NCBI GenBank assembly: GCA_010093605.1
Contig: MU004195.1
Location: 1,441,566-1,505,565, forward strand
Direction of reading: 5' to 3'
Length of the DNA: 64,000 nucleotides
Source of the DNA: Lophium mytilinum
Taxonomy: Eukaryota
Below the pieces are notes generated by a model. The model had not been told where the DNA came from. It saw only the letters and a program-made list of their open reading frames with translations, and made no database searches. Shown here piece by piece: positions 42,581 through 52,306 of the stretch. A program made the position numbers and the translations under genes. Each line of letters begins with the position of its first letter. Within the stretch, counting starts at the first letter, position 1.

Positions 42581-43945
42581 ATGCGCTTCAAAGCGTCGAT
42601 CCAAAATATCTCGATATTTACCAGTATGCCAGCCCTTTACCACACCCTCGAAATCTATCTGACGCGTAAATCGCAGAGCTTACCGCGTCGCTGAACTCGC
42701 TGGGCAACTTTGCGTGGGTCAAGCTCAGCGACAACCAGGTCTGCTTCACCATTATCCCGGAGCAGGGCACACAAGTTTGGGCGTAAGTTTGCCTTGAGGA
42801 CATCGCGTAGATCAAATAAGCTGACCTGTTATTTCTATAGCGTGCTATCCATAGTAAGGGATCCTCTACAGATGCTTGTAGCTCCCATTGACCACCCCGC
42901 CCACGCGTAGGACTCCATATTCGAAGTCTACAACATCCAATCCGCGGCCAACAATGTGGTCAACCTCGAAGTTCCCCTCGCCCCTCTCACCACCGCCCTC
43001 CGATCGGCCCTCCAAGCCACCTCTGCCTCAATACGCCTGACGAAGAAGGACAACATCCCCCTCCTCGCCCTCACCATCGTCACGAACTCCTCCATAAACC
43101 CACGCGGCGCAATTAGTACAACAGGCAACAGTCAGGAGGACAGTGCCTTTGGCAATGGCTACGAGGAGTCTGCCTTTGGCCGCGAGCGCGAAACCATCGT
43201 GACTCAAGAGATCCCAGTAAAAGTGCTGAGCGCCGACTCGGTGTCCGGATTGCATGAGCCACGGTGCCGCGAACCAGATGTGCACATCATGTTACCTCCG
43301 CTGGCGCAGATTAAGGGCATTAGTGACCGGTTCACGAAGCTAGCGTCTGGAGGGGCGAAGCCAGGCGCGGGAATGACGGCGGCGAATGCGCCTCGCTCGC
43401 GGCTAGAACTGTCTGCGAACATGCACGGGTGCTTGAAGCTGAGCATTCGGACGGACGCGATGAACATCAGTAGCGTGTGGACCGGGTTGACGAACCCTGA
43501 GCTCGATCCGAGTCAAGTGCAAGGAGGAGAGGAAGGCATTGCGGAGCATCCCAGCACGCGGATGAAGGCGCTCGGGAGTGCAGACGGGCGCAGCGACCAA
43601 GGTTGGGCAACTGTTCGGATTGATGGTCGAGATTGGGGGAAAGTGATGTCAGTCGGACGTCTGGGTGGCAGAGTCATTGCGTGTGAGTAGAAAAATTGCC
43701 GCCGGCCGCTTTGGAGACCGTCCATCTTTCAATGAGGGCCAATCGAACTGACAGCACCGCAGGCTTCTGTCATGAACATGCGTTGATCCTCTACGTCTAC
43801 CTTCCGAATGACAATGAAGGGGAGGATGAGTCGGTGTTGACCGTAAGTGGAGCTGCTTCATAGCCCCTTCGAAATATGTCACTTTTGCAATCCGAATATG
43901 CCTGACCGGAAGCCTTAGTACTACATGAGCTCCTACAGCGCTTAA
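42581..43945 (+). CDS. HUS1: 9-1-1 checkpoint clamp subunit Hus1/Mec3, 6 exons
   Basis: MRFKASIQN, FTIIPEQGTQVWA, YNIQSAANNVVNLEVPL, ELSANMHG, FCHEHALILYVYL, YYMSSYSA*. Confidence 0.9.
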
Positions 43946-44960
43946 CGAGCGAAGCGCGGCCTACCACCATACCCGAGGCACGAAGTTTTCGATAGTATCT
44001 CTCTCCTCGATCTATGAAACGATGGAATGACGATGAAAAGATGCCCTGTGGCTGGCATTCGTCCAAACCCATAATGATATCCAAAACAAAATATACAAGT
44101 ACAGAAATCCTTCTCATTCCCAGCATAACACTACACCGGAGTGCCCATCCCTCGCAACACAACCCCTCGGCCTTCCCCAAGATCCCGAGTACGTAGAAAA
44201 CACATCTCAGGCCCCCACCCACCGCGCCCCCTCCCGCGCAACAACGACGTCAACACACCAGCCCCCGCCAGTCTGCCTTAACCCTCCAAAATAACCCACG
44301 TAACACAGACTCCCAGTCGTCCAGTCACCGCACGGTTGCAAGTGGCTGTTCACTCTCCCCAACCACGGGACACACACCCGCGCCTCAGCCACTCCGTGGC
44401 CAGACCGCGGCACAGCACGAACCTCAACATCCCCGGAAGGGATCGCGTAAATTTCCCATCGACGCCGCATGCACAGGGGACGCTTACCCGCACGCCACAC
44501 CTTGTTTTTTTTGCCGCGAGCGTGACGGGTTGCTGTTCCGGGAGGGGTGCCTGGCGGAGCCGCGCTGGGTGTCAGCTGTAAGGCTGAAGGATGCGGATCC
44601 TGGGCGGAGGATGATTTGTCTCAGGAGGCGGGCCTGGCCGCGAGTGATGGCTGCATGTTGGCGGCTTACTAACGTAGGGCTGAGCACGCACGGGGTTCGT
44701 GGAGGAAACAAACGCGGGTCAGTATTATGGCCCGCTGCGATGATGGTGGAAGTATATGCGTGGGCGAAGAGCATTCCTACATTCGAGCGGATGTCTGTAA
44801 GGTGGACTCACGGCCGCGGAGTGGGTGGATTTGCTTACAAATCGAGACCACGGCTCTTCAAGGTCCTTGTGCGATATACATCTTGCCGCAAATGTTGAGT
44901 GAATACGGAGTTGGTCAGTCCTCTCTTCGTCCCGCGTCTATATACTACCAAGCGTTTAAA

Positions 44961-45344
44961 ATGCACCAGCTCGAGTTCCCAACCGCTCCTCCTAACCTCC
45001 CCAACCCCTCCACTTCCGCCGCGGAGAACGCTCCCTGGTGCCTCATCGGGCCTGGGATCTGGGAACTGCCCCTCAACAGCTCTGCTCCCTCTTCTTTTGT
45101 GAAAGAGAGGTCTGTCCTGCAGTACTACGAACCGCACACTCCATCTGTTACAGATGCTATTATCACGCACACGTATATTGAAGAGGTGGTGATCTTGTCT
45201 GGAAGCTTGACGGATGTCAAGAAGGGGATTGCGGCGGTGCAGGGGAGCTATGCGTATAGGGAGCCGGGGATGGAGCATGGACCGTATAGAGCAGGGGAAG
45301 AGGGGGTGTTGCAATTTGTTAAGGTGAGAGGTGAGGGGGTGTGA
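44961..45344 (+). CDS. ChrR-like cupin domain protein
   Basis: THTYIEEVVILSGSLTD...GSYAYREPGMEHGPY. Confidence 0.75.
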   Translation: MHQLEFPTAPPNLPNPSTSAAENAPWCLIGPGIWELPLNSSAPSSFVKERSVLQYYEPHTPSVTDAIITHTYIEEVVILSGSLTDVKKGIAAVQGSYAYREPGMEHGPYRAGEEGVLQFVKVRGEGV

Positions 45345-48300
45345 GGTTGAGGTGAAGGAGGAGGTGGGAGATTGGGTTTGAGAGTGGGATTTGGGGAAGT
45401 GGAGAGGAAGAATGAAAGAGAGAGCTATGAGAGAGAGGCGAGTTTGAAAGGAAGAGGGGTAATAAGAGAGATGGGAGTTGAGAGAGAAGGCAGGATGAGA
45501 GAATGGGGGTAAATGCACGAGAGAAGAATCAGATGGAGGGAGGAGTTGGAGAGGAAGATTAGTGAACTGTTTGGGATGTCAGGGACGGATGTCTATAACG
45601 CCGCCTATGACGCCGGCGCAGTTTGCGGACCGAGCCGTTTCGTATTCGGCTCGATGGATGGGTCTTGAGGGTTAAGGGTGCCTTGCGGCCTGGGCTAGAG
45701 AAAACGGTGTTCGTGATACACCGCGTTCGCATTCCTTTTGACGTCAGATGTTGGAGTTGGAGCCGGGTTCGTTTCAGGCACGGACGCGATGTGCTATACC
45801 CACTACTGCCTCATCTCATCCTTTCCGTTTTGCATGTCGAGGCTATGACTCTATTTGCGTATGGCACAACGCAGGCACAGCGCGGTGCAGTCACCGTACA
45901 ACCCACCAGCCTCGCCAATGCCACCTTCTCGAACTTAGCAACTCCCGAAACGAGTTTCCAGTGGACTCACCTCCATCTCGGATATCAATAAATTAGCTGC
46001 TATATTCCCACAATGGCTAATGATCAAGATTATCCGAGCGGCCGCTTCACATGCCGCATTCCACGAATTTACCCGGTGTGACAACCGATTCGCTTCCGCA
46101 ACTGCGGCTCGTGTCTGTGTCTGCTGCAAGCCTCCCGCGCCCGCAGTCCGTACCTGAGCCGTACCGCCCGATCTGCCACCAGCGACCGGGGCTGCTGATC
46201 GAGGAAGTGGCGACAAGCTGAAACGAAATTGAGTACCTAGTAGTGGGAACCGTTGCTTAGCGGCAACGGCGACTAGATCTCGGTGGCGTCAATCGAATCG
46301 GATTCCCCGCATCCTGAATGATGATGACACTTGACCATGGCGGCCGCACGTCTGTGTTTGGAGTTATGATGCGACCCGGGTAGAGATTTGGTATTGAGTC
46401 AATGGCGTATGTTGTGTCATGGAAGCCTCGTCTGCCCTTGCTGTGGAACAGAAGATGGAAGGTTTCTCGTGGAACAGAACACCTTTGTAGAACAGAAAAT
46501 GGAAGAGTGTGACGAATTTCAAATCGGGAAGGCAGGGGTTGACAAGGGAGTACAGGTGATGCGATGGCATTACCTACTCCTTCTACCAAGTTTCAAGTAT
46601 TGGCCCATACCTTTGGACGAATAAATTAATCCTACCCCCACGAAACATCCTCAGGAAGATCAAACGAGTGATACTGCACGCTTTACTAAAACCAACAGTG
46701 GTAGTATGCGCGCGTAGGGGCTAGAAATGAATGGAATGATCTCCGAGAAAGAGAGAGTGCGGGTAAAGACAGTCAAAAATAAGTCAGCAGCTTTGAAACC
46801 ACAGAAATTTTGGCCCCCAAAATAGAATCTCGAGACTCGCCGTGGCTGGTGAGGTGGGATGTCATGGTGGTGAGCCACATCCCCGTCCATTTTCAGCACA
46901 AATGTCGCATAAATAGCTCGGAACGCCACTCCCTTCAGCCAATGGCGGAGATCTCGGTGGCCGGATTGAGCTCAAATGTCCCTTAATATGCACCAAAACG
47001 GAATATGAGGTGCACAGCCCGGGTCAGCCCTAGCGTTAGGGGCGGCAGGGGCATCGCGCTTGTTACAGCCTATGAAGGAAAATCAAAGCGTGTAAAGGGT
47101 TATTTTGGGTGGGTACCTGCAGCGCCCATCCTCTCCATCGGGCTCCAGCCTCGACCCGGGGACGGGGAAAGGATACCGGTGCAGGTTTGGCCCTGTTTGG
47201 ATGCTGCGAGACTCGAGAGCCTGGCTCCTTGCTTCGTTGTGCGGCTCGTGCGTGCATACGTCTATCGACATTCAATCTATGTGTCCGGAATGGAGCAGTG
47301 GTGTCTGCCTTCACTGCGATACTTGGCCCCCATGGATAGAGTGCACCCTGTGGTAATACAAGTAGGGGGCTCCCCCTCCACCTCCAGCGGGCACCTCGTG
47401 GCTCCAGTCGCACAAGCAAGGCGTCCCTTTGGCACGGGGAAAGTGTCTCAATTGTCTTGGAGTCGTTTGGAGCCGCGATTGGCATCTGTGTTAGACAAGG
47501 GAGAGCGATGGAGACCCGGTCGGCCGGCCGCAGCCCTCTATTGCTTCGTTAGGATCCCGAGTATTGGCTGTGATTCGCAGGGCACGATTTGGGATCTCGG
47601 AAGATGGCATTATTTTAGGAATGTAGCAGAGTGCGTCGGCCCATTAGCTGTTCAAGGCTGCGCGCCGGTGACGGTGGAAGCTGGATAGACGCAGGTACAG
47701 CAAGAAGGCTCTCAGCAAACACAGAGACGAGTAGATTGAGGCTCGTGTGGCGCGAAGAAGATGCGCGCTCTCTCACCGACTAGAGTGGTTGTCGCCGAGC
47801 GCTGCGCAGTCGGGATCGCAGAACCGCCTACCGAGCTGAGAGTCTAGAGCACGGATCTCGATCCAACGCTGCGATGCAGTGCTGAAAGAACGAAACAATG
47901 GGAGAGGCCAGCTGTGATGATGCGCTTCTTGGTACTGTACAAGAGGAGACGCCGGGCAACGGGACTGGTCCATTGCAGATCGCCGTTCACATGCCGGCTT
48001 CATGCGCATGCAGGTATGACAGGTCGGCGATGAGTCTTTGACAGCCTCAGGCGCACTCGGATGCCCTCTCACAAGAATGCTCTGGTGGACGGCGAGGCTT
48101 CAATAGGGGGGGAGCGATGGCCAGGTGAGCGATGAAGTCAGAGAAGGAGTGAATGCAACACTCGCATGGAGTTCCTGCTCGCATTCCTATCGCGGCAAGT
48201 ATCGACGGCGAAGGATCTCTGGTTGCACCCACAGTGTGGAACGACGCCGATCAAACGCTTCCCCGGCCACGTTGCGAGATCCGGCGGTGGGTAGTGCAAC

Positions 48301-49039
48301 GGCGGCATCCCTGCGCGCAAACGCAGTGAATACAAGGGCCTCGAGGGCATGACTGTGCCGCCCAGGCCAATGCCATTCACTCAACACCACCTGCACACAA
48401 GCGCGCTGGATCAAGAGGCGTTCGATCCATCCCGCGCCTGTCGCAATGCCCGATCGCCTCGCCGCACCGAGCGTGAATTGATGCCTCCGGTTCCGTCTCC
48501 GACTCTCTCCATCCATCTAGTACCTCTCCCAGGCTCCCGTCCCGTCCGTCGCGCCTCTCCGCGCCGCGCACGAGAAGCACAACGGCCGCCGCAGAGCAGC
48601 TCGCACAGCGTCACACGTCGGATTCGTGATTTGAAATTAGGATTTCGAGCACCTGGAATCCTGGATTGCCTCCAGGGCCACGGCTCACCTCACCCGCACC
48701 CATGCGCAGCTCTTCCATCCCACGCTGCCCCGAAGCGCCAGGGCTGAACCAGGGTCTCAGCGCCGCCGCATCCACTCCAGCGGGAGGCTTGTCAGGGCTT
48801 GTCCCCATAGCCACAACCCACTGCTCCCCTCACACCTGCACCCACCGCTCGTCCAACGGCTTCGACGCCGCCATCGCGAGGAAACGGGGCTTGGCCAGTG
48901 CAGGTGCCCTTTGCAACCGCTATGCACAGAACCACCCTTGTGTCTCCCGCAGGGGTCGAGAGTAATGCCCGTCCGCTGAGGCTACCCTCCCTCCCCTAGT
49001 GCCAGGCACCGATTGTGTAAAAGCACGCGCCAGAGGTGG

Positions 49040-49047
49040 ATATAAAG
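49040..49047 (+). promoter_or_regulatory. Putative TATA box upstream of the MGRGGYN mini-ORFs (second TATAAA at ~49287)
   Basis: ATATAAAG followed by a pyrimidine/CA-rich ATG-free leader typical of strongly expressed fungal genes. Confidence 0.45.
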
Positions 49048-49490
49048 GCAGAGTCCCCAGTTGTGGCCTGGAGAGTCATCATCATCACCACCAAGCATTC
49101 ATCCATCCATCCATCCCACGCACCACACACACACAGCATCCAGTTACACGCCTCGCACGCGCGTTTCATTGTCTCGGCCTTCCATCCTTGCGCTTCCACT
49201 TGCTCTGCTCTGTTGCCTTCTCCTTGGGGTCATTTTCTATTCCGAGCGGCCTCCGCCTCTGCTGTCTTCTACTGCGTTCTCTGCTTTATAAACAGCGTCT
49301 CCTTGAGTCATTTGCTTCCATCCATCACATCTCAACTTCCATCGGTCCTCAAGGCATCACATCTTCTCTACACATCACCGCATCTCCGTCTCAGCGTTCT
49401 AGTCCGCAGTCACATATCATCGTCGTCACTTCAAGCATAGCAATCATATCGTCCTTCTCAACCATCTTCATCAACATCTTCATATTCTCC

Positions 49491-49514
49491 ATGGGTCGCG
49501 GCGGCTACAACTAG
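49491..49514 (+). CDS. Putative micropeptide MGRGGYN, copy 1
   Basis: ATG GGT CGC GGC GGC TAC AAC TAG; the first ATG in >500 nt; the same peptide is encoded again 137 nt downstream. Confidence 0.55.
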   Translation: MGRGGYN

Positions 49515-49627
49515 ACGCTTTCCACCAGATCACACAAGTTCAGCAGGACCAGACGACACCAAGCCCACGCACCAAGCCAAGAGGCGCCCTACACTACCCA
49601 CAACCACCACCCGTCCCAGCCATCATC

Positions 49628-49651
49628 ATGGGCCGCGGCGGATACAACTAG
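49628..49651 (+). CDS. Putative micropeptide MGRGGYN, copy 2
   Basis: ATG GGC CGC GGC GGA TAC AAC TAG; strong context (ATC-ATG-G); differs from copy 1 only at two synonymous Gly third positions. Confidence 0.55.
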   Translation: MGRGGYN

Positions 49652-50188
49652 AGGACCGGAAATCCGGAGTTCCAACACCCCACTCAACACCCGACCGCAT
49701 ATCGCAGCGGTCAACTACCACAATTCCCACTCCATGATATTATAACCACATCCCACGCGGCTTTGTATATATGGCGGCTTCTTCATATTCCCATTCTTAC
49801 CAGCACAATGACGACGATAAACGGGGCGGTTTTCGGGAGGAGGGAGTGAGGTGGATGCGGCGGCGGAGGAAGGAGGAGGTTGTAGAGCGTTCTGATTTCG
49901 ATTTCCCTTCTTGTTCTTCAGCATTGCGAGCGGTCCAGCGATTTGGGCTAGAGGTTTCTTTTGCGCAGCGTTCTTGTCTTTTTCCTTCTCTCTGCGTTTC
50001 TTCCGGCATTGTTCCTGTTTTCCAGCGAGCATTGCTACGGCACGGCTATTTCGTCTTTCCTACTCAATCTGCATTTCCTGCCTGCTATTCCTGCGTTTCC
50101 CGCTTTGCATTTGTTGTCGCATTCGCATTTAGCCCTCTATTCCATATCCCATATCCAAATTCGAACCTCGTGTCGCCCGACCCGGCTA

Positions 50189-52306
50189 CTACTTCCCCAC
50201 ACAGAACCTGCACTCGCGAAACACAGATTAGCAAAAGCTCATTGCGCAACCCTTCTCGAACGTTGAGACCTGAAACACCGGGGGCCGGGAGGGCCCGGAT
50301 GGTGCCACAGACCGGTCAAGAAAAAGCCGTTTGACTTAGGCAGCACATGTGATGCGGAGAGAGGGCGCTATGACTCACTTTTCGAATACGACCCCCAAGA
50401 CCTCCTCGACGTCTCCCGCTTCGCCTCGGCCCGTGATCCGCGCCATGCTGTCTGCCGCCGCGCGGAGGGACTCAGCTGCGATGACGATGTCGATGTCCAT
50501 TTCGGCGTTCTCTTCTGCTGTTTCTGGCGCGAGTTTGCCTTCCCAGAGCGGGTCCTGGGCTAGTGGTCGTGGTTCATGGTGAGAGATGTCGGCTGCGCCG
50601 ACGGCAGTGAGGAAGGCTTCGAGGTGGTCCAGACATTCGGAGAGCAGGACTCGCTGGCGTTCTGTGGCGCCGAGAGACTCTTGCCAGATTGATGCGTCGG
50701 GTATGTCGTCGGTGGATTCAGAGTCTGGGATCAGGGCAGAGGTCATGGATTTGAAGGTTGAGATGAGTCCTTGGAGGAAAGATTGGACGTTTCCTGGGTC
50801 GGAATCAGAGGAATTGGCGTCAGATGTAATAGCGTTTCTGCATGAAATGAAAAAGACGCGGTCGGATGGTACGTCGAGGGCAGATTGAATCGTTTCTTTC
50901 CATCGTGCTTCAGATGCTGTGGCGTTCGAGAGTTTGTCTACCTTGTTGATAGCAACGACGACATTGATGCCGAGATCCACACATTCCCTGGCTGTCGCTT
51001 TGACCTCGGGGTCGATATCCTTTGAAGCATCCTGAACCACGATCAAAACATCCGACTCAAGCGCGCGCTGCTTAGCCCTCTTAATCCCCTCTTCCTCGAC
51101 AGCACCCACCAGCCCCTCTCCACCCCCTAACCCATCCCCACCCGCTAACCCAGCCCTCCTCAACCCCGCCATATCCCCTAGCCGCACCAACCACCCCCCA
51201 AGATCCACCCCCACCTCCACCACATCCCTCGTCGTCCCAGCCTCCGCCGCCACAATCGCCGCCTCCCGCCCCACAATCCGATTCAGCAAACTGCTCTTCC
51301 CCGCATTCGGCGCCCCCAGCAACGCCACCCCAATCCCGCTCCGCAACAGTTCGCCCCTGACCGCATTCGCGCGATGCGCCTCAATCTGCCGCTTCAACCG
51401 CCGTATCTGCCCCGCGACGGACGCGCATAACTCAACCGGCGACTCGTCGAAGTGCTGGTCCTCGGAGAAGTCGATCAGCGCCTCCAGCTCCCCGCGCGCG
51501 AGCAGGAGCAGCCGGCGCCAGCTCTCGTAGCGCGCGGCGAGCGAGGAGGTGGTGCCGCGCACGGAGAGCTGGCGCTGTTGCTCGGTGGTGGCGGAGAGGG
51601 TGTCGCCGAGGGCTTCGATTTGGGGGAGGGTTAGGCGGTTGTTGGTGAAGGCGCGGCGGGTGAATTCGCCGGGTTCGGCGTAGCGGATGCGGGGTGGAGG
51701 ATGGAGGGTTGCTGAGGGGGGGAGGCATTGCGGGATGGCGGCGAGGACGGCGCGGATGATGGCGGGGCCGCCGTGGATGTGGAGTTCAAGGATGTCTTCG
51801 CCTGTGACGGTGTGCGGGGAGGGGAAGTGGAGGATTAGGGCGCCGGAGTCGAGGACGGTGGAGGGGGAGGGGGGGAGGTGGGGGGTGTAGAGGCGGCGGA
51901 GGGTTGCGTGGCGGGGTTTTGGGAGGGGTTTGAGGGGGCAGAGGGATTGGTATATCTAGGAGGAGGGAGTTGGGTTAGAATGAGGCTATGATTGATGATG
52001 ATGATTGATGGAGGGTGAAATTACCTGAAGGCATGCCGGACCTGATATGCGTATTACGGCTATGGCGGCTTTGCCCGGAGCGGTGGATAGGGCGTATATG
52101 GTAGAGTCTTCATGATGAATGACACTTGAATTGCCAGTATGATAATTGCGATGAGATTTTGGGCTCAAGGGCCTTCGTGAGAAAGGTGTAACATGATTGC
52201 GACAAGCGCTGTAGTTTCTCCCAACTAGCAATTGGACGACAGGTAAAGGACGACTCGGACAGTTGATTCGCGGTAGGTGCTTGTAAAGACACTGCAGAGC
52301 TCTCAT
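50189..52306 (-). CDS. MSS1: Mitochondrial tRNA modification GTPase Mss1/MnmE (GTPBP3); exons 52306-52025, 51955-50379, 50207-50189
   Basis: TIYALSTAPGKAAIAVIRISGP, TGEDILELHIHGG, ALIDFSEDQ, GAPNAGKSSLLN, GTTRD, NKVD, terminal VFEK|FCVGK*. Confidence 0.95.

Follow-up and report, generated by a model that had tools for sequence, protein, structure and literature searches.

The closest described system is the tarsal-less (tal) gene of arthropods, known also as polished rice or mille-pattes, which produces a single transcript without a long open reading frame (ORF) and in which several tandem, tiny ORFs encode near-identical peptides. Translation and function have both been proven for this gene. 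In the available portion of its description, the peptides are from 11 amino acids upwards and the spacing of 40-200 bp between ORFs is argued to permit reinitiation (PMC1852585). Here, a locus of similar layout is described in a filamentous fungus. The locus lies in a stretch of 64,000 nucleotides from Lophium mytilinum (GenBank assembly GCA_010093605.1, contig MU004195.1, positions 1,441,566 to 1,505,565 of the forward strand), the whole of which is called the window and supplies the numbering used below. It comprises two seven-codon short ORFs (sORFs), each of which encodes the heptapeptide MGRGGYN. The conservation of these ORFs indicates that a transcript without any ordinary gene very probably holds a real, overlooked micropeptide gene.

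Several other systems rely on very short ORFs. Conserved-peptide regulatory ORFs include the upstream ORF (uORF) of AdoMetDC, which encodes the hexapeptide MAGDIS, and that of the fungal arginine attenuator peptide of arg-2/CPA1. ENOD40 of legumes is an abundant, conserved transcript that contains only very short ORFs and for which peptide and RNA roles are debated. Fungal precursors of ribosomally synthesized and post-translationally modified peptides (RiPPs), Kex2-processed precursors and pheromone precursors are encoded by a long ORF with a signal peptide, dibasic sites between repeats, or a CaaX C-terminus. Finally, mccA of E. coli encodes the microcin C precursor MRTGNAN, a directly translated heptapeptide that is itself the functional substrate, according to the accessible part of PMC4231749.

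The resemblance to tal is the most extensive. In both, a single RNA without a long ORF holds tandem copies of a tiny ORF, a seven-residue core is kept while copy number varies by lineage, and one ORF can carry two copies of the motif (ORF AA in tal and a fused ORF in the homologous locus L007, described below). The spacing also suits reinitiation in both, at 40-200 bp in tal and 61-209 nt in the fungal loci (PMC1852585, available portion). In contrast, the cores (LDPTGXY versus MGRGGYN) and the kingdoms differ, so that the fungal locus is an analogue and not a member, and the start contexts at the 5' end are stronger in tal, whereas those of the first fungal copies are weaker (same source and extent). 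The tal ORFs span 11-32 codons and the fungal ORFs seven, the fungal gene has a fixed, convergent linkage to MSS1, and its translation and function are predicted, whereas those of tal are proven.

The remaining systems share fewer features. Like MAGDIS and the arginine attenuator peptide, the fungal ORFs are very short, conserve the amino-acid sequence over the nucleotides and could plausibly act inside the ribosome; those regulatory ORFs are, however, single and upstream of a main ORF, whereas the fungal locus has two to three copies and no main ORF. ENOD40 differs in being a plant gene with unrepeated ORFs that are unlike one another, in a strongly structured RNA, whereas the fungal RNA is unusually unstructured. 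A RiPP, Kex2-processed or pheromone precursor was rejected: each fungal copy has its own ATG and stop, and there is no signal peptide, Lys-Arg site, Cys or CaaX. The mccA product is likewise a directly translated, seven-residue peptide that ends in Asn (PMC4231749, accessible part). However, mccA is a single-copy bacterial gene that opens an operon in which the adenylating enzyme MccB is also encoded, whereas the only conserved neighbour of the fungal sORFs is MSS1, with no MccB-like gene among the 15 long, unspliced ORFs scanned.

The literature search found no paper on MGRGGYN and no description of tandem heptapeptide ORFs in fungi, and the accessible records retrieved for GRGGYN concern only unrelated Gly-rich proteins, nuclear localization signal (NLS) peptides and delivery systems. 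The shortest sORF of a fungal survey has 11 residues, in the portion of PMC7394265 that is available, and the accessible sections of a 2024 review of the fungal 'hidden genome' mention nothing comparable (PMC11413187). By these comparisons the predicted gene adds a new variant, fungal and deeply conserved, to the polycistronic micropeptide genes.

The two ORFs and their conservation

The sORFs of the window (Table 1) are 24 nt each and differ at two positions, 49496 (T/C) and 49505 (C/A), both of which are synonymous third positions of Gly codons. A repeat search returns a 26-nt repeat, 49490-49515 and 49627-49652, with 92 % identity, so that the similarity extends a single base beyond the ATG and the TAG. 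The two lie in different frames, 137 nt apart, and the spacer between them is 31 % A, 44 % C, 15 % G and 10 % T. When the window was searched with the degenerate codon pattern and up to 3 mismatches were allowed, the only two sites found were the sORFs themselves; the expectation from shuffled sequence is 0.02 and two sites were reached in 1 of 100 shuffles. An initial annotation, made from the letters of the window, had claimed two mini-ORFs for one identical heptapeptide with two synonymous differences, similarity that ends within one base of ATG and TAG, a 113-nt, A/C-rich spacer without ATG, no ATG from 48965 to the first copy, and a -3 base that is weak in copy 1 (T) and is A in copy 2. 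Each of these claims is borne out, with the coordinates exact and both differences at Gly wobble sites.

To find homologues, a metagenome collection was scanned with the pattern ATGGGNCGNGGNGGNTAYAAYTAG, which yielded 10 fungal loci (L001 to L010). Applied to 596 Gb of prokaryotic genomes, the pattern gave 0 matches, and chance matches are therefore negligible. All 10 loci hold two to three related copies, the further copies being 61-209 nt away. Three copies are present in L001 and L004, which are one sequence from two samples (stops TAA, TAG and TAA), and in L006 (TAG, TAG and TGA). Two copies each are found in L002, L008, L005 and L003, the contig of the last being cut 20 nt upstream of the first copy, and L009 has two copies plus a third that carries a CGA-to-TGA nonsense change. 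L007 holds one canonical copy and a 22-codon ORF, MGRGGYNGPRRTILLQGRGGYN, which resembles two fused copies and uses AGA for Arg. L010 combines a canonical copy, a second in which ACG replaces the ATG but an ATG four codons earlier is in frame (MNPSTGRGGYN), and a third that is decayed and lacks an ATG (TGRGGHS). The first copies of L002, L008, L006, L009 and L010 are orthologous to sORF 1 of the window and differ from it only synonymously. Between the deeper lineages, neither flanks nor spacers can be aligned.

In total, 18 canonical MGRGGYN-stop ORFs are present in the 9 distinct metagenome loci (the duplicate L001 excluded) and two in the window, and an Asn codon directly precedes the stop in all 20. 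The distance between ATG and stop is fixed in 18/18 canonical copies. The stop itself is interchangeable: TAG, TAA and TGA all occur, all four bases follow the stops, and TAA or TGA ends six of the 18 canonical copies, which the search pattern did not require. Among the 23 copies with an intact core, four bases are seen at the first Gly wobble, three at each of the next three wobbles, and C or T at the Tyr and Asn wobbles; since the core was the criterion by which these copies were chosen, the tally is circular at the first and second codon positions.

A set free of this circularity consists of the copies that were found by nucleotide similarity alone (up to 6 mismatches) and do not match the search pattern, with the duplicates L001 and L008 dropped. 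The five ATG-bearing copies of this set differ from the consensus by 12 synonymous and 0 non-synonymous changes, where 26 % synonymous would be expected (P about 9e-8). A copy that starts with CAG has one synonymous difference. The only decayed copy without an ATG, in L010, has instead 0 synonymous and two non-synonymous differences. The substitutions in these seven-codon ORFs are those of purifying selection at the amino-acid level. Coding of the 24-mers on the minus strand was considered and rejected: just one frame there would place the variable sites at wobble positions, and it contains stop codons.

The depth of this conservation can be gauged from the adjacent MSS1 protein: comparisons of the window with the loci give identities of only 46-63 % for MSS1, against an unchanged peptide. 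The MSS1 fragment of the window is 100 % identical over 476 residues to a Lophium mytilinum protein and 86 % identical to that of Mytilinidion resinicola; judged by this protein, the window is from a Dothideomycete (Mytilinidiales). Among named organisms, L007 is closest to Endocarpon pusillum (70 %), Aspergillus and Penicillium being near 50 %, and by the same measure this locus is from a Verrucariales-like Eurotiomycete. For L004, no named organism exceeds 57 %. With a Dothideomycete window and a Eurotiomycete L007, the peptide has remained the same in at least two classes of Pezizomycotina, whose split is put at several hundred million years ago.

Promoter, transcript and the convergent MSS1 gene

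RNA evidence consists of assembled contigs from four sources, X3 to X6, from which strand, ends and level cannot be read. In X3, whose sequence is identical to the window, a single contig covers 48350-50205 continuously, with both sORFs unspliced in it, and then continues over the MSS1 intron to 50377-51126; being spliced there, it is cDNA-derived. X4 comes from a relative, organism C, that is about 4 % diverged. It has the same MSS1 splice and a contig on 49571-50090, and its records 8 and 9 overlap at 50061-50090. X5, which shares its study with X4, contributes contigs at 49384-49537 and 49554-49958 and an untyped contig that reaches 50100, and X6, a lake-water metatranscriptome library, contributes 49124-49256, 49303-49453 and 49610-49826. 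The sORF region is thus present in RNA-derived assemblies of three studies, and sORF 2 is covered by contigs of X3 and X4 and also of X5 and X6. The contigs of X5 and X6 fall within 49124-50100, with none on MSS1 coding exons, and X4 to X6 have none upstream of 49124; this pattern is taken as evidence neither for an independent or abundant transcript nor for a start site. Among the 40 of 152 organism C differences that are listed, none lies within 49628-49651 and six lie at 49659-49677, the overall divergence being only about 4 %, a basis too thin to argue for conservation of the sORFs. Organism C also has a 12-nt insertion in the spacer between the sORFs.

A TATA box with the sequence TATA[AT][AG] precedes the first sORF by 155-610 nt in 8 of the 9 loci with upstream sequence, and in 7 of the 9 it is followed after 22-30 nt (about 25) by an element that resembles GGCCTGGAGTCAT or GGAGGCCTCA. 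This arrangement suggests that the sORF transcript has a promoter of its own, with a TATA box and a conserved element about 25 nt behind it, and from these two a transcription start near 49078 can be predicted for the window. The GGCCTGGAGTCAT / GGAGGCCTCA element is common to deep lineages (the window, L002, L004, L005, L006, L008 and L009), and in the core promoter it could serve as an initiator or bind a factor.

The leader that would follow is unusual in composition. The + strand is free of ATG from 48968 to 49490, and the resulting gap of 526 nt before copy 1 is the longest ATG-free gap on the + strand of the 64-kb window. Leaders without ATG, 149-676 nt in length, are found in 9/9 loci with upstream sequence, where composition would lead one to expect 1.5-7.4 ATGs. 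The segment 49080-49660 has a minimum free energy of -99.9 kcal/mol, compared with -173 +/- 17 in 60 segments of the same length from the window, none of which (0/60) is as weakly folded. At the first copy, the -3 base is a pyrimidine in 10/10 loci and the +4 base is G throughout. Gaps from a stop to the next ATG are 61-209 nt across all loci, and the spacers contain no further ATG in 8 of the 10, with one extra ATG each in L007 and L010. An ATG-free, unstructured leader combined with ATG-free spacers is a layout fit for the predicted scanning. One further leader sequence, GTCGTCACTTCAAGC at 49422-49436, about 55 nt 5' of sORF 1, is kept in L002 and L008 amid otherwise diverged leader.

Table 1. 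Coordinates of the candidate micropeptide locus and of the convergent MSS1 terminus in the window
Feature	Position	Strand	Remarks
TATA box TATAAAGG of the sORF transcript	49041..49048	+	same sequence in L002 and L008
Initiator-like element GGCCTGGAGAGTCAT	49065..49079	+	conserved; predicted transcription start near 49076-49078
5' leader	49079..49490	+	ATG-free, G-poor (about 14 % G), weakly structured
sORF 1	49491..49514	+	ATGGGTCGCGGCGGCTACAACTAG = MGRGGYN-stop; -3 base T
Spacer	49515..49627	+	113 nt, A/C-rich, ATG-free
sORF 2	49628..49651	+	ATGGGCCGCGGCGGATACAACTAG = MGRGGYN-stop; -3 base A
Third mini-ORF ATGATATTATAA	49734..49745	+	MIL-stop; block alignable only with L002/L008
Conserved block TTGTATATATGGCG	49763..49776	+	consensus YTTGTAYATAYGRC, contains UGUAYAUA; behind last sORF
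Probable 3' untranslated part of sORF RNA	49777..50100	+ (inferred)	end approximate, from RNA-derived contigs
MSS1/mnmE terminal mini-exon (K, then FCVGK-stop)	50189..50207	-	splice joint 50205/50377 in X3 and X4 contigs

Behind the last sORF, the YTTGTAYATAYGRC block recurs in 8 of the 10 aligned sequences (window, L002, L003, L004, L006, L008, L009 and L010); it is absent from L007, and the contig of L005 ends earlier. Its UGUAYAUA sequence resembles PUF-protein sites and yeast 3'-end efficiency elements. Some lineages have a second block, TACATATC, after it. The third mini-ORF corresponds to ATGCTGTTATAA (MLL-stop) in L002 and L008, other lineages have MYD-stop, MYEEEE-stop or MWD-stop at a comparable place, and it may encode a peptide, work as a start/stop device or have arisen by chance. 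A perfect 8-10-bp hairpin, (GA)TCGTACAT...ATGTACGA(TC), is seen in L006 (about 1845-1880) and L009 (about 1350-1385, both in oriented coordinates). As a general feature it was discarded, L004 pairing different blocks and the window group having none. An Rfam search of 48300-50400 gave 0 matches at E <= 1.

The 3' side of the locus is occupied by genes on the minus strand: MSS1/mnmE (Pfam MnmE_helical, TrmE_N and MMR_HSR1) and then a GFO/IDH/MocA oxidoreductase. The MSS1 intron at 50208-50378 (cut +2, CT..AC, which is GT..AG on the minus strand) joins ...VFEK to the five-codon exon FCVGK. The MSS1 stop at 50189-50191 is 537 nt from the stop of sORF 2, tail to tail. In 8/8 loci that extend far enough, the terminal exon FC[VI]GK-stop of a convergent MSS1 is found 119-816 nt after the last copy; the count omits L005 and L010, whose contigs end first. 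The distance from the last copy to the MSS1 stop is shortest in L009, at 119 nt. A second MSS1 intron, of 69 nt (51956-52024), is evident from the RNA contigs.

No room for a main ORF on the + strand is predicted before MSS1, and there is no sign of one. Two long ORFs, 49738-50334 (+) and 49715-50059 (-), were rejected as genes: they match no Pfam family and are absent from a collection of 15 billion proteins. Among the 40 of 152 organism C differences that are listed, nine are substitutions between 49820 and 50059, and 3/9 of these fall at third positions in each long ORF, so that third-position bias is absent from both ORFs of this 3' part. The contigs of organism C also show two 3-nt insertions, AGG and GTT at 49870 and 49888, in the purine-rich repeat of the 3' part; both look like repeat slippage rather than coding constraint.

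On the 5' side lie a Hus1 gene (42911-43687, +), a Cupin_7 ORF (44673-45341, +) and then about 3.3 kb without a recognizable ORF. Although this stretch, 45600-48900, has no Pfam-recognizable ORF, cDNA-derived X3 contigs cover 46500-47892 and 48350 onward, and it may harbour non-coding transcripts that escaped annotation, or form a very long promoter. A Pfam scan of the 15 long, unspliced ORFs at 38.9-57.1 kb returned only BTB, Hus1, Cupin_7, MnmE and GFO/IDH/MocA, with no ThiF/E1-like or other biosynthetic gene.

Proposed mechanism and rival explanations

The reading preferred here, held with slightly more confidence than doubt, is that of a stand-alone, polycistronic mRNA whose product, the peptide MGRGGYN, acts in trans. 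RNA polymerase II would transcribe the + strand from near 49078 to about 50100, strand and ends being predictions, to give an RNA of about 1 kb in which the two seven-codon ORFs are the only conserved coding content. Ribosomes would scan the roughly 410-nt leader, which is AUG-free, G-poor and weakly structured, and part of them would start at the first AUG, with its pyrimidine at -3 and G at +4. Those that leak past sORF 1, or that reinitiate after it, would start at the next copy, 113 ATG-free nt further on; reinitiation is plausible here because seven codons are far below the length at which it fails, an argument also put forward for tal (PMC1852585). One mRNA would thereby supply two doses of the peptide, and three in other lineages. 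Removal of Met where Gly follows is an established rule, and the product would probably be GRGGYN. N-myristoylation of Gly2 was considered and set aside, Tyr at position 6 being at odds with the consensus. The free micropeptide would then act in trans on some target, and the gene would be kept convergent, and probably 3'-overlapping, with MSS1.

The action in trans is suggested by the tandem, identical copies, by the free choice of stop codon and context, and by the lack of an ORF to regulate. Multiple copies per mRNA would also fit a dosage logic by analogy with tarsal-less. Further support comes from the claims of the initial annotation that relate to the gene as a whole. Selection on the peptide itself, which it had proposed, agrees with the 12 synonymous and 0 non-synonymous changes of the unforced copies, with the decay of the copy that lacks ATG and with the exchange of stops; the clustering and the MSS1 synteny that it had named as checks are found in 10/10 loci and in all 8 informative loci, respectively. 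Its stand-alone transcript, missed by gene finders, is supported by the unspliced RNA contigs, the conserved putative core promoter and the lack of a main ORF. It had also pointed to the convergent gene as the reason why no main ORF follows on the + strand, in keeping with the position of the MSS1 stop. Its remark on RGG as a motif for RNA binding and arginine methylation is speculation as far as this peptide is concerned.

A number of points weigh against action in trans. Translation and the peptide are read from the DNA sequence, and a free peptide of six to seven residues would be expected to be short-lived. To our knowledge, no directly translated, trans-acting eukaryotic peptide shorter than the 11 amino acids of tal is known. 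The predicted start site is made less certain by the X3 contig, which begins at 48350, about 700 nt before the TATA box, and the pyrimidine at -3 is predicted about 65 % of the time by leader composition alone. Every locus was ascertained by one exact MGRGGYN-TAG copy, and lineages with a diverged peptide are invisible to such a scan. In addition, the variants MNPSTGRGGYN of L010 and MGRGGYNGPRRTILLQGRGGYN of L007 keep a C-terminal GRGGYN-stop with an altered N-terminus, which would fit a nascent chain that acts in cis at least as well as a free hexapeptide. Finally, the strict linkage to MSS1 across classes (8/8) is unexplained by a peptide that acts purely in trans.

The last two points lead to the most serious alternative, which is possible though unlikely. 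Here, selection would act on the nascent ...GRGGYN at termination, through a sequence-dependent pause like those of the MAGDIS uORF and the fungal arginine attenuator peptide. The pause would set the stability of the RNA or its transcription or read-through into the overlapping MSS1, such that the RNA would be a translated regulator of MSS1 rather than a peptide gene. The persistence of convergent MSS1 at 119-816 nt, despite MSS1 identities of only 46-63 %, is what such a regulator would show, and the 119-nt gap of L009 means that sORF and MSS1 transcripts must overlap there; RNA contigs indeed link the sORF region to spliced MSS1 without a break (X3 record 3; X4 records 8 and 9). A peptide that is kept while its codons drift synonymously is also a property of conserved-peptide uORFs, and it is established that seven residues fit within the ribosomal exit tunnel. 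However, the same mRNA has no downstream ORF to regulate, and two to three tandem, identical copies are unusual for arrest peptides and usual for the dosage of a product. The occurrence of all three stop codons and all four next bases shows that no special termination context is kept, and the N-terminally altered copies, which retain the C-terminal GRGGYN-stop, share their loci with a canonical copy and may be merely decaying.

Two further explanations fare much worse. That the 24-mers are a DNA or RNA motif (protein-binding, base-pairing, or a 3' element of MSS1 on the other strand) in which the ORF is incidental is very improbable. They do form G+C-rich islands within a G-poor RNA, further short, non-coding blocks nearby are also conserved, and the fairly uniform codon choice (mostly GGC/GGT, CGC, TAC and AAC) would allow for some constraint at the nucleotide level. 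Yet only every third base varies: the first Gly wobble takes four bases, and each of the following three wobbles takes three. Arg has also switched from CGN to AGA, and TAG, TAA and TGA are freely exchanged. Moreover, the distance from ATG to stop is constant (18/18), the copy that lost its ATG has also lost the peptide, the minus-strand frame of equal periodicity has stops, and Rfam has no match in 48300-50400. It is equally hard to credit that the sORFs are pieces of a longer protein, by splicing, upstream non-AUG initiation or read-through, or that they are uORFs of a main ORF on the + strand. The frame of window copy 1 is open for 175 codons upstream, the frame of 49738-50334 is open for 198 codons, and both 3-nt insertions of organism C fall in the latter region. 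Against this, the RNA contigs cross both sORFs without a joint, which also answers the concern of the initial annotation that the 24-mers might be spliced exons. Upstream in-frame openness is inconsistent between loci (three codons for copy 1 of L006, 22 in L007 and 37 in L005), with most values within those of shuffles, and N-terminal extension from non-AUG starts was rejected on these grounds. Flanks cannot be aligned between lineages, the two copies occupy different frames 137 nt apart, and L009 leaves only 119 nt between its last copy and the MSS1 stop. The downstream ORFs have no Pfam family, no counterpart in the 15-billion-protein collection and the 3/9 third-position substitutions described above.

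To return to the stand-alone gene with a product that acts in trans, a fuller account of it is put forward tentatively, with more doubt than confidence. This would be an ancient ascomycete gene in which two to three tandem, seven-codon cistrons yield a free peptide of six to seven residues. This peptide, whose C-terminal Asn is invariant, would serve as a regulator in trans or, as with microcin C, be converted into a modified small molecule. The gene would be functionally coupled to MSS1, beside which it would have stood since before the split of Dothideomycetes and Eurotiomycetes.

Implications for fungal genomes

If the gene is real, no shorter stand-alone ORFs that code for protein would be known from any eukaryote, and the minimum size of a stand-alone eukaryotic coding gene would drop from 11 to seven codons. 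With its AUG-free, unstructured leader, the locus would offer a clean, natural model of leaky scanning and of reinitiation. It also raises the question of why a gene for a seven-residue peptide has stood tail to tail with the gene for a mitochondrial tRNA-modification GTPase for hundreds of millions of years. As the 0 matches in 596 Gb of prokaryotic DNA show, the motif has the specificity needed for searches of any genome. For the filamentous fungi as a group, the finding would mean that they have a class-spanning, polycistronic micropeptide gene that was missed by both annotation pipelines and sORF surveys.

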